From Terriglobia bacterium (GTDB taxonomy: Bacteria; Acidobacteriota; Terriglobia; 2-12-FULL-54-10), in contig CAXVYQ010000002.1 in NCBI GenBank assembly GCA_963662495.2, forward strand, positions 390,355-454,354: a DNA stretch of 64,000 nt, in the 5' to 3' direction. Below are positions 5,871 to 59,606 of this stretch, piece by piece. Numbering within the stretch: position 1 is the first letter of the stretch; the number at the start of each line of letters is the position of its first letter. Below the pieces are notes generated by a model. It saw only the letters and a list, made by a program, of their open reading frames with translations. It was not told the origin of the DNA and did not search any database. The position numbers were made by a program, and so were the translations under genes.

Positions 5871-6927
5871 GCAGTTTCAGATGTTCGGCGTCGAAACGTG
5901 CTCCTTTCTTCCAGACGATCCAAGTGATCGTCGCAATCTTGCGTGCCACGGTGAGTCGAGCCAGCGCAGGCTTCATCCCCTTGGCCAGTAACCCTTCGTA
6001 ATACTCATGCAACAATCCAGTCGAACCGCTGGCCTGCATGGCCGCGCTCTTGAAGATCCATTTCAGATCATGGTTGTGGTTCTTATTCAGACCCCGCAGC
6101 GCCACCGGTTTCTGGGAACGGCGCAGTTGCCCATCCACGTAACGGTATTCCCGACTACCACGTGTCTCGATCGCCAGGCCGCTGTAGGCCCATAGTTGCC
6201 GCTTCGTCCGGAACCGGTGTGGGGTCTGTAGCAGCGCGATCAACACCGCCGCACGGATCGGACCGATTGACGGAATCTGGCGCAGCAATTTCGTCGCTCC
6301 ATGCTTGCGGCTCTCCGCCAGTAGATCCCGGCGCACCGCCTGGCGTAATGCTTGCAGCCCGTCCAGTTGCTGATAGAGGAACTCAGCCCGACAGCGCACA
6401 CCGGCTTCCGTGATCTTGCTCAACCATTCCGAACGATGTCGCGGTGCGTAGACTTGCGTGCCCGCGCAGGCAATACCCCAGCTTCGGTACAATGCCTTCA
6501 GCCGATTCATCACTCGCGTGAGATCTTTGCTCACCGTCAGATAACTCCGCGACAGCTCCTGCAACGTGCGTAGACCCTTTTCCCCATGGTAGACCGCCGA
6601 GAGCGATCCATTCCGCAGCAGTTCGGCCAGCTTCCTCGCATCGATCCGGTCGCTCTTGTTGCCCGATTTCAGCAACGCATTCTTTCGCGGATCGCACACG
6701 ATCAGCTGCGACACGTGAGGCCGCAGCAAGTCATACAGCCAGGCAGCCCAGGTCCCCTCTTCCAACGTGACCTGCAAATCCCCCTGCAGTCCTTGGAGGA
6801 ACTGCACAATCGTGGCTGCCTTCGTTTCTACGATCGTCTCCATCACCAGCTTGCCCGAAGAGTTCATGACCGCAATCGTTATCGCTTCTTGGTGCACGTC
6901 CATCCCGATATACTTTGTTCTATCCAT
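5836..6927 (-). CDS. IS110-family recombinase/transposase, copy 1 (C-terminus reads into the IS5 inverted repeat)
   Basis: It has the IGMDVH, LEEG, CDP and KSDRIDA DEDD/RuvC-like motifs, then QIPSIGPIRAA and YSGLAIETRGS in the C-terminal domain. The last residues RWCMNQPRLPR replace the QAA of copy 3. Confidence 0.9.
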   Translation of the reverse strand: MDRTKYIGMDVHQEAITIAVMNSSGKLVMETIVETKAATIVQFLQGLQGDLQVTLEEGTWAAWLYDLLRPHVSQLIVCDPRKNALLKSGNKSDRIDARKLAELLRNGSLSAVYHGEKGLRTLQELSRSYLTVSKDLTRVMNRLKALYRSWGIACAGTQVYAPRHRSEWLSKITEAGVRCRAEFLYQQLDGLQALRQAVRRDLLAESRKHGATKLLRQIPSIGPIRAAVLIALLQTPHRFRTKRQLWAYSGLAIETRGSREYRYVDGQLRRSQKPVALRGLNKNHNHDLKWIFKSAAMQASGSTGLLHEYYEGLLAKGMKPALARLTVARKIATITWIVWKKGARFDAEHLKLRWCMNQPRLPR

Positions 6928-7006
6928 TCAGGCTGCTCCTTTCGATAGGCGTTAAGGTTAACGCTCGAAACCTATCGCACTAGGGGCGCCCTTTTATAAT
7001 GCGTGT
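5871..7006 (-). mobile_element. IS110-family element, copy 1 (3'-truncated: lacks the roughly 435-nt tail present in copies 2 and 3)
   Basis: Near-identical to 58232-59367 and to most of 10398-11488. Identity starts exactly at the IS5 terminal repeat (5870/5871) and ends after ...ataatgcgtgt (7006). Confidence 0.8.
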
Positions 7007-7312
7007 AGACCTATCCGCCTCGCAGGATTACTCTATACTTCGCCGTTACTCAGGAGTAATCGCCGAGGACGGGTCCGATGGGGGTGCCTCTGCTGGGGGA
7101 GCTCTTACGGAAGCGGGGGAGAATCATCTGGGCTTTTTTGCCTGGAGCTTCGGTCTCCAAACCCCTGGCTCTTCCGGGCGGCGGCGAGCAGTTCTCAGGC
7201 GATCGCTTGCCTTGAAACTGCCTTCGTCCTTATCGCGGTACAATTTCCCCCGGCCGGGTCAATTCGCAGTTTTTTATGGGAATCTGCCACAGATATGGGT
7301 TGATACTGTCGA

Positions 7313-9998: not shown

Positions 9999-10397
9999 GT
10001 CCTATAAAAGGGGATGTCAAGAAAAAAGACCTCCCCGGCCACCGGAGAACACGGAAGTTCTCGTGCATCCAGCCCCCCCCGGTACGTTCGGCTCGTGGTC
10101 CTGACCGTTCTGGCCTTTCGTGTTGCGACCAGCCGGCATGCTTCCTCCATCCCAGCAGTTTCATCTTTGCGGTTACGACGACGCCCTTGGTTTCCCGAAA
10201 CCGGCAAGCGGGGTGGTTGCAGAGTTGGCAACCATGGTCCTATCGGAGACTCGTGGCCTATAGCTTTCTTGGGTTATCCGAGGGGGCATAGAGTGTTTAT
10301 AGAGACTCGGTGCCGGTGGCACACAGGGCCTAACTACGCGATGGATGCTCTCCCTCGAACCCGAGCGTCTCAAGAACCCATTGGGCACCGCCGGAGA
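9999..10397 (-). repeat. copy of the IS110-associated non-coding tail (second copy at 57785-58183)
   Basis: A line-by-line comparison of the two copies shows a single mismatch over about 399 nt. Confidence 0.9.
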
Positions 10398-11409
10398 CGA
10401 TCCAAGTGATCGTCGCAATCTTGCGTGCCACGGTGAGTCGAGCCAGCACAGGCTTCATCCCCTTGGCCAGTAACCCTTCGTAATACTCATGCAACAATCC
10501 AGTCGAACCGCTGGCCTGCATGGCCGCGCTCTTGAAGATCCATTTCAGATCATGGTTGTGGTTCTTATTCAGACCCCGCAGCGCCACCGGTTTCTGGGAA
10601 CGGCGCAGTTGTCCATCCACGTAACGGTATTCCCCACTACCACGTGTCTCGATCGCCAGGCCGCTGTAGGCCCATAGTTGCCGCTTCGTCCGGAACCGGT
10701 GTGGGGTCTGTAGCAGCGCGATCAACACCGCCGCACGGATCGGACCGATTGACGGAATCTGGCGCAGCAATTTCGTCGCTCCATGCTTGCGGCTCTCCGC
10801 CAGTAGATCCCGGCGCACCGCCTGGCGTAATGCTTGCAGCCCGTCCAGTTGCTGATAGAGGAACTCAGCCCGACAGCGCACACCGGCTTCCGTGATCTTG
10901 CTCAACCATTCCGAACGATGTCGCGGTGCGTAGACTTGCGTGCCCGCGCAGGCAATACCCCAGCTTCGGTACAATGCCTTCAGCCGATTCATCACTCGCG
11001 TGAGATCTTTGCTCACCGTCAGATAACTCCGCGACAGCTCCTGCAACGTGCGTAGACCCTTTTCCCCATGGTAGACCGCCGAGAGCGATCCATTCCGCAG
11101 CAGTTCGGCCAGCTTCCTCGCATCGATCCGGTCGCTCTTGTTGCCCGATTTCAGCAACGCATTCTTTCGCGGATCGCACACGATCAGCTGCGACACGTGA
11201 GGCCGCAGCAAGTCATACAGCCAGGCAGCCCAGGTCCCCTCTTCCAACGTGACCTGCAAATCCCCCTGCAGTCCTTGGAGGAACTGCACAATCGTGGCTG
11301 CCTTCGTTTCTACGATCGACTCCATCACCAGCTTGCCCGAAGAGTTCATGACCGCAATCGTTATCGCTTCTTGGTGCACGTCCATCCCGATATACTTTGT
11401 TCTATCCAT
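10330..11409 (-). CDS. IS110-family recombinase, copy 2 (C-terminus altered by the 93-bp deletion)
   Basis: The 359-aa ORF is identical to copies 1 and 3 apart from a few substitutions up to ...ATITWIV. It then reads SGGAQWVLETLGFEGEHPSRS out of the non-coding tail. Confidence 0.85.
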   Translation of the reverse strand: MDRTKYIGMDVHQEAITIAVMNSSGKLVMESIVETKAATIVQFLQGLQGDLQVTLEEGTWAAWLYDLLRPHVSQLIVCDPRKNALLKSGNKSDRIDARKLAELLRNGSLSAVYHGEKGLRTLQELSRSYLTVSKDLTRVMNRLKALYRSWGIACAGTQVYAPRHRSEWLSKITEAGVRCRAEFLYQQLDGLQALRQAVRRDLLAESRKHGATKLLRQIPSIGPIRAAVLIALLQTPHRFRTKRQLWAYSGLAIETRGSGEYRYVDGQLRRSQKPVALRGLNKNHNHDLKWIFKSAAMQASGSTGLLHEYYEGLLAKGMKPVLARLTVARKIATITWIVSGGAQWVLETLGFEGEHPSRS

Positions 11410-11614
11410 TCAGGCTGCTCCTTTCGATAGGCGTTACCTTCGATACTGAAAACCTATCGCACTAGGGGCGCCCTTTTATAATGCGTGTAGACCTATCCGG
11501 CAGGCAGGATGACTCGCCACTACGCCGTCAGGATCTATGTTGCCTGATCGCGTGGCGGTCAAATTCCGAGATGCCGATCAAGATGTAAAAAAGTGGTGGT
11601 CCGCTCGTGGGCAG

Positions 11615-13150: not shown

Positions 13151-13525
13151 TGTACCCGGTCAGGCCAAGTTGGACAGGAAGGGTGGAATTGATAAGGTGG
13201 AGTTTTTGGCTCATCGTAGAGACTGAAAGGAACGAAGATGAGACAAAAACAAGACGACCAGAGGGCGGTCGAGAAGACCGTCCGGGAGATCAAGCGCAGG
13301 ACGCGGCGCAGGTTCAGCCCGGAAGAGAAGATCCGCATCGTATTGCAGGGACTTCGCGGCGAGGACAGCATCGCGGAGCTGTGCCGCCGCGAGGGGCTAC
13401 ACCAGAACCAGTATTACCGCTGGAGCAAGGAGTTTCTGGAGGCGGGCCGCAAGCGGCTGGCGGGCGACACAGAACGCGAGGCGACCAGTGGCGAGGTTCA
13501 GACCCTGCGGGAGCAGGCCGTGCAG
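13151..13525 (+). mobile_element. truncated IS3-family copy (left inverted repeat plus the first ~96 codons of orfA), inverted relative to the complete copy
   Basis: It starts with tgtacccggtcaggccaagttggacagg, the same terminus as 15037-15010 read on the minus strand. ORF 13238-13561 matches the orfA protein at 14579-14950 through ...REQAVQ and then diverges. Confidence 0.85.
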
Positions 13526-14617: not shown

Positions 14618-14950
14618 CAGCAGACGGTTTTCCAGCATGGCTTCGGCCAGGGCCTCTTTCAGCTGCACGGCCTGCTCCCGCAGGGTCTGAACCTCGCCAC
14701 TGGTCGCCTCGCGTTCTGTGTCGCCCGCCAGCCGCTTGCGGCCCGCCTCCAGAAACTCCTTGCTCCAGCGGTAATACTGGTTCTGGTGTAGCCCCTCGCG
14801 GCGGCACAGCTCCGCGATGCTGTCCTCGCCGCGAAGTCCCTGCAATACGATGCGGATCTTCTCTTCCGGGCTGAACCTGCGCCGCGTCCTGCGCTTGATC
14901 TCCCGGACGGTCTTCTCGACCGCCCTCTGGTCGTCTTGTTTTTGTCTCAT
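14579..14950 (-). CDS. IS3-family transposase OrfA (HTH)
   Basis: 123 aa: RRRFSPEEKIRIVLQGLRGEDSIAELCRREGLHQNQYYRWSKEFLEAG followed by a leucine-zipper-like tail. Confidence 0.85.
   Translation of the reverse strand: MRQKQDDQRAVEKTVREIKRRTRRRFSPEEKIRIVLQGLRGEDSIAELCRREGLHQNQYYRWSKEFLEAGRKRLAGDTEREATSGEVQTLREQAVQLKEALAEAMLENRLLKKSVIGDGEDGI
14611..14617 (-). promoter_or_regulatory. A7 slippery run, probable programmed -1 frameshift site of the IS3 element
   Basis: In sense orientation the sequence is ctg AAA AAA Agt near the end of orfA. The -1 frame continues as KCDRGWGGRYMRHPASEKLEII into OrfB. Confidence 0.5.
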
Positions 14951-15117
14951 CTTCGTTCCTTTCAGTCTCTACGATGAGCCAAAAACTCCACCTTATCAAT
15001 TCCACCCTTCCTGTCCAACTTGGCCTGACCGGGTACAATTTTCTCCTGGAAGAAAAATGGTTTAGGTATTGCTAAAAAACTCAAATCCGCTGGGAAGCAA
15101 TTCCACCGGTTCTGCTG

Positions 15118-57784: not shown

Positions 57785-58220
57785 GTCCTATAAAAGGGGA
57801 TGTCAAGAAAAAAGACCTCCCCGGCCACCGGAGAACACGGAAGTTCTCGTGCATCCAGCCCCCCCCGGTACGTTCGGCTCGTGGTCCTGACCGTTCTGGC
57901 CTTTCGTGTTGCGACCAGCCGGCATGCTTCCTCCATCCCAGCAGTTTCATCTTTGCGGTTACGACGACGCCCTTGGTTTCCCGAAACCGGCAAGCGGGGT
58001 GGTTGCAGAGTTGGCAACCATGGTCCTATCGGAGACTCGTGGCCTATAGCTTTCTTAGGTTATCCGAGGGGGCATAGAGTGTTTATAGAGACTCGGTGCC
58101 GGTGGCACACAGGGCCTAACTACGCGATGGATGCTCTCCCTCGAACCCGAGCGTCTCAAGAACCCATTGGGCACCGCCGGAGATGATCCGGGGGATCGAC
58201 GGACTCTTTACCCGAGACGC
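57785..58220 (-). ncRNA. candidate structured non-coding RNA (bridge/seek-RNA-like) in the 3' tail of the IS110-family element
   Basis: This ~435-nt stretch is conserved between two element copies and is dense in hairpins: 57831-57848, 57975-57988, 58001-58019 and 58096-58108, plus a 9-bp long-range pair between 58149-58157 and 58214-58222. It has no convincing ORF. Transcription has not been shown. Confidence 0.3.
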
Positions 58221-59288
58221 TCAAGCTGCTTGCAGTTTCAGATGTTCGGCGTCGAAACGTGCTCCTTTCTTCCAGACGATCCAAGTGATCGTCGCAATCT
58301 TGCGTGCCACGGTGAGTCGAGCCAGCGCAGGCTTCATCCCCTTGGCCAGTAACCCTTCGTAATACTCATGCAACAATCCAGTCGAACCGCTGGCCTGCAT
58401 GGCCGCGCTCTTGAAGATCCATTTCAGATCATGGTTGTGGTTCTTATTCAGACCCCGCAGCGCCACCGGTTTCTGGGAACGGCGCAGTTGCCCATCCACG
58501 TAACGGTATTCCCCACTACCACGTGTCTCGATCGCCAGGCCGCTGTAGGCCCATAGTTGCCGCTTCGTCCGGAACCGGTGTGGGGTCTGTAGCAGCGCGA
58601 TTAACACCGCCGCACGGATCGGGCCGATCGACGGAATCTGGCGCAGCAATTTCGTCGCTCCATGCTTGCGGCTCTCCGCCAGTAGATCCCGGCGCACCGC
58701 CTGGCGTAATGCTTGCAGCCCGTCCAGTTGCTGATAGAGGAACTCAGCCCGACAGCGCACACCGGCTTCCGTGATCTTGCTCAACCATTCCGAACGATGT
58801 CGCGGTGCGTAGACTTGCGTGCCCGCGCAGGCAATACCCCAGCTTCGGTACAATGCCTTCAGCCGATTCATCACTCGCGTGAGATCTTTGCTCACCGTCA
58901 GATAACTCCGCGACAGCTCCTGCAACGTGCGTAGACCCTTTTCCCCATGGTAGACCGCCGAGAGCGATCCATTCCGCAGCAGTTCGGCCAGCTTCCTCGC
59001 ATCGATCCGGTCGCTCTTGTTGCCCGATTTCAGCAACGCATTCTTTCGCGGATCGCACACGATCAGCTGCGACACGTGAGGCCGCAGCAAGTCATACAGC
59101 CAGGCAGCCCAGGTCCCCTCTTCCAACGTGACCTGCAAATCCCCCTGCAGTCCTTGGAGGAACTGCACAATCGTGGCTGCCTTCGTTTCTACGATCGACT
59201 CCATCACCAGCTTGCCCGAAGAGTTCATGACCGCAATCGTTATCGCTTCTTGCTGCACGTCCATCCCGATATACTTTGTTCTATCCAT
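58221..59288 (-). CDS. IS110-family recombinase, copy 3 (355 aa, likely the native form)
   Basis: Same motifs as copy 1. It ends ...AEHLKLQAA with TGA at 58221-58223. AGGAG lies 8 nt upstream of the ATG. Confidence 0.9.
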   Translation of the reverse strand: MDRTKYIGMDVQQEAITIAVMNSSGKLVMESIVETKAATIVQFLQGLQGDLQVTLEEGTWAAWLYDLLRPHVSQLIVCDPRKNALLKSGNKSDRIDARKLAELLRNGSLSAVYHGEKGLRTLQELSRSYLTVSKDLTRVMNRLKALYRSWGIACAGTQVYAPRHRSEWLSKITEAGVRCRAEFLYQQLDGLQALRQAVRRDLLAESRKHGATKLLRQIPSIGPIRAAVLIALLQTPHRFRTKRQLWAYSGLAIETRGSGEYRYVDGQLRRSQKPVALRGLNKNHNHDLKWIFKSAAMQASGSTGLLHEYYEGLLAKGMKPALARLTVARKIATITWIVWKKGARFDAEHLKLQAA

Positions 59289-59606
59289 TCAGGCTGCTCC
59301 TTTCGATAGGCGTTACCTTCGATACTGAAAACCTATCGCACTAGGGGCGCCCTTTTATAATGCGTGTTTAGTAATCTGGAAAATCGCAGGTGTAAACGCG
59401 GTGCGAAAATGCTAGCGAATTACGGGTTTAATCACCTTTCAAAAGGGGTCGGTTGAAAACGATAATTCGGGTATTGAAAAGAAAGGAGTTACCAAGTCCG
59501 AAAACACTCTTGCAAAAGCTAAGGCTTTTGAAAGGAATTGGGATTTCGACTGGACCTCGTGGTCCGGGGAAATCAGATGGCCCGATTTGTGTGCCAGGAT
59601 GCAAGG

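Follow-up and report, generated by a model that had tools for sequence, protein, structure and literature searches.

The window, the whole stretch of DNA analysed here, comprises 64,000 nt from a Terriglobia bacterium (Acidobacteriota; assembly GCA_963662495.2, contig CAXVYQ010000002.1, positions 390,355-454,354). It contains three repeats that are copies of one insertion sequence (IS), all on the minus strand (Table 1). The transposase of the complete copy contains a DEDD_Tnp_IS110 domain (PF01548, E = 4e-17) and a Transposase_20 domain (PF02371, E = 5.5e-13). The element has a left end of 77 nt and, in copy 3, a right end of 436 nt, with 10-bp subterminal inverted repeats (CCCTTTTATA/TATAAAAGGG) and an AC dinucleotide core at both junctions. 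Comparison of occupied and empty REP-type sites reveals site-specific insertion with AC as the shared core and no long target duplication. Members of the IS1111 group are recognized by a short left end, a long right end and subterminal inverted repeats of 7-17 bp (PMC11208160). On the basis of its DEDD and Transposase_20 domains, end lengths, subterminal repeats, site-specific insertion with an AC core and the right-end guides predicted below, we assign the element to the IS1111 group of the IS110 family.

An Rfam scan of the full element returned no family at E values up to 1, and the closest relative found by protein-based scans of genome and metagenome collections is 81% identical at the protein level. 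Almost all of the 160 relatives retrieved (70-81% protein identity) come from MAGs of Acidobacteriota or from metagenomes of soil or peat. The element is a previously undescribed IS1111-group member, from an acidobacterial clade with its own REP-like target. Genome-wide (12 contigs, 3.28 Mb) its copies are represented by 13 left ends. Between 34 and 42% of the window's sequence words recur in four sponge-metagenome runs of one study (X1-X4), which suggests that the source organism is sponge-associated. Elsewhere in the window lies a perfect 375-nt inverted repeat (13151-13525 and 14663-15037, arms 1137 nt apart), described in the first-pass annotation as a pair of IS3-type ends.

Table 1. Features of the insertion sequence copies in the window (window coordinates; roles of guides, promoter elements and helices are predictions).
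Feature	Position	Strand	Remarks
Copy 1	5871-7004	-	3' part and whole right end lost to an IS5-type (DDE_Tnp_1) insertion
Copy 2	9999-11486	-	93-bp deletion across the stop codon
Copy 3	57785-59365	-	Complete reference copy; 1581 bp; AC core at both ends
DEDD transposase ORF, copy 3	58221-59288	-	355 aa; PF01548 + PF02371
Left-end segment, copy 1	6983-7004	-	Core-proximal ACGCAT, inverted repeat TATAAAAGGG, then GGGCGCCCC (6983-6991)
Same left-end segment, copies 2 and 3	11465-11486; 59344-59365	-	
Leader hairpin, copy 1 (version B)	6943-6977	-	7-bp outer stem CGATAGG/CCTATCG, 21-nt interior
Block B	6955-6967	-	Minus strand CGAGCGTTAACCT; ancestral-like, as judged from relatives; 11/13 match to relatives
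Leader hairpin, copy 2 (version A)	11425-11459	-	
Block A	11437-11449	-	Minus strand TCAGTATCGAAGG; probably derived; 11 genome loci, no relative
Leader hairpin, copy 3 (version A)	59304-59338	-	Block A at 59316-59328
Shine-Dalgarno AAGGAG to transposase ATG	6925-6941; same at 11407-11423 and 59286-59302	-	3' arm of predicted basal helix
Predicted right-target guide, copy 3	58119-58129	-	CATCGCGTAGT; antisense of core + right flank ACTTCGCGA.., one mismatch
Predicted left-target guide, copy 3	58079-58089	-	TCTATAAACAC; same sense as left flank ..TAAAC + core AC
Predicted left-donor guide, copy 3	58023-58031	-	CGATAGGAC; same sense as right-end tip ATAGG + AC
TTGACA near right-end tip	57801-57806	-	On circle/tandem junction 17 nt upstream of left-end CATTAT

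The left end of each copy carries a hairpin on the minus strand, positioned 3 nt upstream of the transposase AAGGAG Shine-Dalgarno (SD) sequence. Read on the plus strand of copy 1, cgatagg (6943-6949) and cctatcg (6971-6977) enclose a 21-nt loop (6950-6970), in which the 15-mer at 6955-6969 is aggttaacgctcgaa. The equivalent 15-mer of copies 2 and 3 (11437-11451 and 59316-59330) is ccttcgatactgaaa, matching at 6 of 15 positions. Strictly, the differing span is 13 nt long (6955-6967) and includes nine mismatches. In the orientation of the IS, copy 1 has CGAGCGTTAACCT between GGTTT and TAACGCC, where copies 2 and 3 have TCAGTATCGAAGG; these are hereafter called versions B and A, respectively. 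Rechecking in the window upheld all coordinates and letters of the hairpin as first annotated, along with a palindrome in copy 1 (gcgttaa-gg-ttaacgc) and a near-repeat of the neighboring cctttcgata in copies 2 and 3. The latter is a 7-nt exact match, with a chance probability of ~0.04 as a direct repeat and ~0.06 in either orientation.

Alignment of copies 1 and 3 over 1136 positions shows 15 differences, nine in the block and six spread over the other ~1120 nt (0.5%). Since only ~0.07 differences would be expected in 13 nt at the background rate, independent point mutations are excluded and the block behaves as one replaced unit, as the first-pass annotation had argued. Version A is present at 11 of the 13 left ends in the genome, and version B at two, namely copy 1 and a 95-nt relic (C3:253922-254016) severed after codon 6 by an IS3-type element. 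The possibility of an assembly or consensus artefact, raised at the outset as a potential refutation, has some foundation in the presence of at least 11 near-identical IS copies and in Logan contigs from three runs (X9-X11) that collapse the IS interior to version A; these contigs stop at the IS end and neither confirm nor contradict B at copy 1. However, B occurs at two separate assembly loci with different flanks, and a contig from sponge-metagenome run X1 covers 6809-7038, joining the copy-1 block and the IS end to 32 nt of copy-1-specific flank. The only departures of this contig from the window are two private SNPs, at 6837 and 6986, both outside the block. Given the second B locus and the X1 contig, the block is real, and an artefact merits almost no credence.

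The element inserts into REP-like hairpins at their loop, ..CGGATAGGT(CT/AA)AC-AC-TTCGCGAC..GACCTATCCG.. (core between hyphens), and empty sites of both REP subtypes exist in the genome. Guide positions were compared in 10 representative elements with different targets. The core and 7-9 nt of right flank recur antisense at element positions ~1237-1249, where the present element has CATCGCGTAGT, with one mismatch. In most of the 10, the core together with the adjacent 6-8 nt of left flank recurs in sense at ~1280-1288 (ATAAACAC in the present element); the exceptions are L029, with a left-flank match at 1358, and L071 and L043, in which no match reaches 6 nt. A third recurring segment is ATAGGAC, the tip of the right end, at ~1337-1345. 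Among 74 distinct insertions, the longest match within the right-end region averages 5.91 for the left flank in sense and 7.59 for the right flank in antisense, compared with 4.69 and 5.06, respectively, for permuted flanks, and the observed values were reached in 0 of 200 permutations. This covariation with target flanks places the putative guides of the element in the 436-nt right end, which is predicted to encode a bridge/seek RNA that would recognize both target and donor.

Two copies lie head to tail outside the window at C8:609813-612763. The first ends at element position ~1289 (query 1372), exactly where the complete second copy starts, and the breakpoint is within the left-target-guide region of the first copy (..TCTATAAAC-AC-TCTATG..). 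It appears that the guide sequence here served as target, in a case of self-targeting of the bridge-RNA gene. At four loci in two genomes of the same class (L003, L004, L013 and L018; genomes G028 and G036), right-end positions 1179-1405, corresponding to the bridge-RNA region, are 83-89% identical and have no adjacent transposase match. From their sequences, these are putative stand-alone guide-RNA-like copies, comparable to ssr9 of ISPpu9. On the left side of copy 3, 80 nt of flank (window 59366-59450) recur at ~98% identity at C8:~612682-612763 and C12:~433575-433657, adjoining two other copies or fragments; this flank is not a REP-type site but is itself repetitive or belongs to a duplicated segment.

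The first-pass annotation had proposed that the block is itself a guide-like segment. The loop would then be an extra, programmable module of the bridge/seek RNA and its exchange would have reprogrammed copy 1, in keeping with the position of the block in a loop, its replacement as a unit and its occurrence within an RNA-guided IS family. The site of copy 1 was correctly noted to differ from that of copy 3, but it is of the same REP-like repeat type as the site of copy 2. Both B copies are located at GGATAGGTCTAC-AC sites and most A copies at ..TAAAC-AC sites, with TCTAC-AC accounting for 2/2 B copies and 2/11 A copies and TAAAC-AC for 9/11 A copies (Fisher p ~0.08, not significant). This association of B with a site subtype is weak, if still conceivable, and was set aside, being contradicted by the A copies at the same type of site; the two A copies at TCTAC sites have an unchanged right-end guide, identical to that of A copies at the other subtype. 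Both B copies have lost their right ends, which leaves the B guides unreadable. The leader stem CGATAGGT/GCCTATCG (6943-6977), in particular GATAGGT/CCTATC, also resembles the REP target stem GGATAGGTC/GACCTATCC (e.g., 7007-7017 and C4:214717-214790). This resemblance is probably due to chance, since relatives with unrelated targets also conserve TAGGT.

Direct comparisons speak against a guide function of the hairpin. Across the same 74 insertions, for which the right end covaries with the flanks, the mean longest match between left-end hairpin and flanks is 3.6-4.1 nt, versus 3.8-3.9 nt for permuted flanks, so that loop variants do not covary with insertion sites, and version A is present at both site subtypes. 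Local alignments of both loop versions with their own flanks and the empty site are no better than those of shuffled loops, and neither version has complementarity to target or donor sequences above chance. Searches of both hairpin versions against the right end yielded only 7-mers, equal to shuffles. When the leader was folded jointly with the 3' tail, as at a circle junction, pairing between block and tail had a mean probability of 0.01 for A and 0.14 for B, the latter modelled with an A-type tail as the B copies have lost their own. Moreover, the loop varies across the family while the donor ends are invariant. These tests largely refute the guide reading, which we regard as very improbable. 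The comparisons locate the programmable part of this acidobacterial IS1111 clade in the right end rather than in the left-end hairpin, a distinction that should prevent the leader from being mis-annotated as a guide.

All relatives share a left-end plan consisting of the core, (G/A)CATTATAAAAGGG, CGCCCCTTT, a stem-loop of ~35-45 nt, GAAAGGAGCACC and the ATG, and this leader architecture is common to 80 distinct leaders. The hairpin part has a mean folding z-score of -2.2, with 71% of members below -1.5. Its outer stem varies yet stays complementary (GGTAG/CTACC, GGTAA/TTACC, TGGAG/CTCCA, GTAGG/CCTAC and, in the present element, CGATAGG/CCTATCG), and double-sided changes are seen in five of the seven outer-stem pairs. 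RNAalifold found no consensus structure for the 80 leaders, as the stem lies in two different registers among the subfamilies; the analysis relied instead on folds of individual sequences and on named structures. In the named structures, 80-85% of cells are paired, versus at most 55% with slid partners.

Beneath the stem-loop, GGGCGCCCC is predicted to pair with the AAGGAG/GC..CC ribosome-binding region, forming a basal helix that adjoins the left subterminal inverted repeat. Pairing of the GG core of the SD sequence with the initial 12 nt of the leader has a mean calculated probability of 0.98 across the 80 leaders, with values of 0.997 for B and 0.998 for A. The GG core has an unpaired probability of ~0.00, compared with 0.25 when the upstream part is shuffled. 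The basal helix is 95.7% paired and nearly invariant in sequence, and the case for it is therefore thermodynamic rather than one of covariation.

With a probability of roughly 0.75, we interpret the hairpin as belonging to a structured 5' leader on the transposase mRNA, of which it forms the upper part, and the block as two apical alleles of this leader rather than a guide. This estimate applies to the explanation as a whole, comprising a two-tier leader, guides in the right end, an older version B, the origin of A in one event and the subsequent spread of A. In the modelled leader, the basal helix between GGGCGCCCC and the SD region would support a stem-loop with the outer stem CGATAGG/CCTATCG and a variable top. 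Versions A and B share their outer and basal helices and a predicted minimum free energy of -22.9 kcal/mol, and SD accessibility is similar in both when coding context is included. The top of B can form either AGGTT/AACCT, the middle stem of the family, or the GCGTTAA/TTAACGC palindrome, while A has a new short stem, UUUC/GAAG, stacked on the outer stem. By analogy with ISPpu9 and IS10/IS50, the fold most likely keeps transposase translation low.

The first-pass annotation regarded copy 1 as the carrier of a swapped-in cassette; comparison with relatives reverses this polarity, with copy 1 ancestral-like and copies 2 and 3 novel. Of the 13 positions of version B, 11 match TGAGCGTT(G/T)ACCT of the nearest relatives (L104, L114 and L091). 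Overall, B is the closer version for 53 relatives and A for 20. B is joined to the family-consensus CCCCTTTTG in the C3 relic and to CCCCTAGTG in copy 1; at all 11 A loci the sequence is TAGTG. This ordered series indicates that B would be the older state and A a novelty of the lineage that later spread. Judged from these sequences, B is probably ancestral-like and A derived. In one A-type copy outside the window (C12:242530-244061), an element of ~1.5 kb bounded by terminal repeats (CAGGCCGTGGTGG..) interrupts the left end between CCCCTAG and TGCG. Without the lineage-specific TTT-to-TAG change, the leader would lack the CTAG struck by this insertion.

IS paralogues commonly exchange short conversion tracts, and the block could be a patch acquired by recombination or by gene conversion, the latter already suggested in the first-pass annotation, from a diverged member of the same IS family. 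The apical segment differs between subfamilies, and a foreign tract would look alike. However, a 19-nt search of the genome allowing up to three mismatches found block A only in the IS copies, and none of the ~160 relatives at 70-81% protein identity has it. The sole donor candidates in the genome, 12/13 matches of the 13-mer in unrelated genes, occur at chance number and were rejected. A pattern scan of metagenomes for the hairpin with any interior of 11-15 nt gave no hits for either version, and no A-to-B intermediates were found in the protein-based scans. Furthermore, B, as the family-like state, needs no import, and the differences end sharply at the block with no linked changes in its flanks. 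Conversion is thus an unlikely source of the block, albeit one that retains some weight.

It is most likely that A arose in the present lineage by a single complex or clustered, multi-base mutational event. Clustered template-switch mutations occur at quasi-palindromes and short repeats. The event in question may have been templated by TATCGAAAGG, 21 nt downstream, or have followed damage at the B palindrome; a templated origin and palindrome-provoked repair are both put forward tentatively. As in template-switch mutations, many substitutions appear at once in a hairpin-forming region, and TATCGAAGG of block A partly copies TATCGAAAGG. In contrast to such mutations, the exact match extends to only 7 nt (chance 0.04-0.06), the similarity explains nine of the 13 block bases, and no microhomology was found at the block edges or switch points, so that template switching is best described as a candidate mechanism. 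Two other sources were considered and dropped: snap-back at a quasi-palindrome, which explains only TATCG, and inversion of the centre of the B palindrome, which is no more parsimonious. Whichever its mechanism, the event would have disrupted neither the outer stem nor the basal helix, and would not have altered the predicted stability overall. Subsequent spread would have carried the A-bearing element to at least 11 loci, with B surviving only as two dead relics. Apart from the location of the guides, the addition of this clade to those with such a leader, and the use of the A/B pair as a reagent, the block would represent an ordinary clustered mutation in a regulatory hairpin.

Scans for promoters and terminators in the left end found none on either strand of either version, with no sigma-70-like promoter and no internal promoter created by the block change. 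Joining of the element ends produces TTGACA-17-CATTAT, a predicted junction promoter whose spacing is the same in relatives. As TTGACA is thereby placed 17 nt upstream of CATTAT, a junction-driven transcript would be predicted to start near GGGCGCC and to consist almost entirely of the leader fold. One relative (L090:1100-1135) has a natural junction between right and left ends, TTGACT..TATAGA-AC-GCGATATAAAAGGG, indicating a tandem dimer or an assembled circle junction.

The apical loop could alternatively be the specificity determinant for a trans-acting or antisense RNA, engaged through a kissing loop as for Asr9 of ISPpu9 or RNA-OUT of IS10, in which case the swap would have created a new regulatory immunity group. 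An antisense RNA does span the 5'-UTR of ISPpu9 (PMC8450116). A change in a loop shared by sense and antisense RNAs alters both partners together, and A is found at 11 loci whereas B persists only as relics. If this reading were true, the A lineage would have been freed from resident B-type control and undergone a burst to at least 11 loci, an IS counterpart of the switching of plasmid incompatibility by loop changes. However, neither left-end strand of either version has a sigma-70-like promoter or terminator, and there is no complementarity to the right-end RNA. The gap in copy number may simply reflect age, and both B copies were killed by insertions of other IS. An antisense target is accordingly a long shot, and we favor a cis-acting leader with two apical alleles.

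The A/B pair constitutes a natural loop-swap allele in which the rest of the element is constant, and offers a reagent for testing the leader apex. The element also extends the set of IS1111 elements with a predicted ribosome-binding-site (RBS)-hiding leader to a distant, apparently sponge-associated clade of Acidobacteriota, which supports the view that such a brake may be general in the IS1111 group.

Like ISEc11, ISPa11 and ISKpn4 (PMC11208160, PMC11187229), the element combines a DEDD transposase, a short left and long right end, and subterminal repeats with a dinucleotide core and putative right-end guides matching target flanks and donor ends. Unlike them, it belongs to an acidobacterial clade with its own REP-like target and nearest relatives at 70-81% protein identity. 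The left-end leader hairpin is not treated as part of the guide RNA in these studies (PMC11208160, PMC11187229). The closest experimental precedent is ISPpu9, an IS110-family element of Pseudomonas putida KT2440 that inserts into REP hairpins and has a small RNA gene downstream of tnp as well as extra stand-alone copies of it (PMC8450116, PMC12288879). The 5'-UTR of its tnp buries the RBS, and weakening of the fold raised translation 26-fold (PMC8450116). The present element resembles ISPpu9 in its REP-hairpin target and predicted RBS-burying leader, but whereas the 5'-UTR of ISPpu9 is long and covered by the antisense RNA Asr9, the left end here is 77 nt in length and no antisense promoter was found in it.

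In IS10 and IS50, fold-back pairing of end-proximal sequence with the ribosome-binding region of the mRNA leader limits transposase synthesis, the fold being confined to read-through transcripts that start outside the element. In the present element, an end-proximal segment is likewise predicted to pair with the ribosome-binding region in the leader. In contrast to IS10 and IS50, a transcript from the predicted junction promoter would already include the 5' arm of the helix, and the brake on transposase synthesis would be constitutive.
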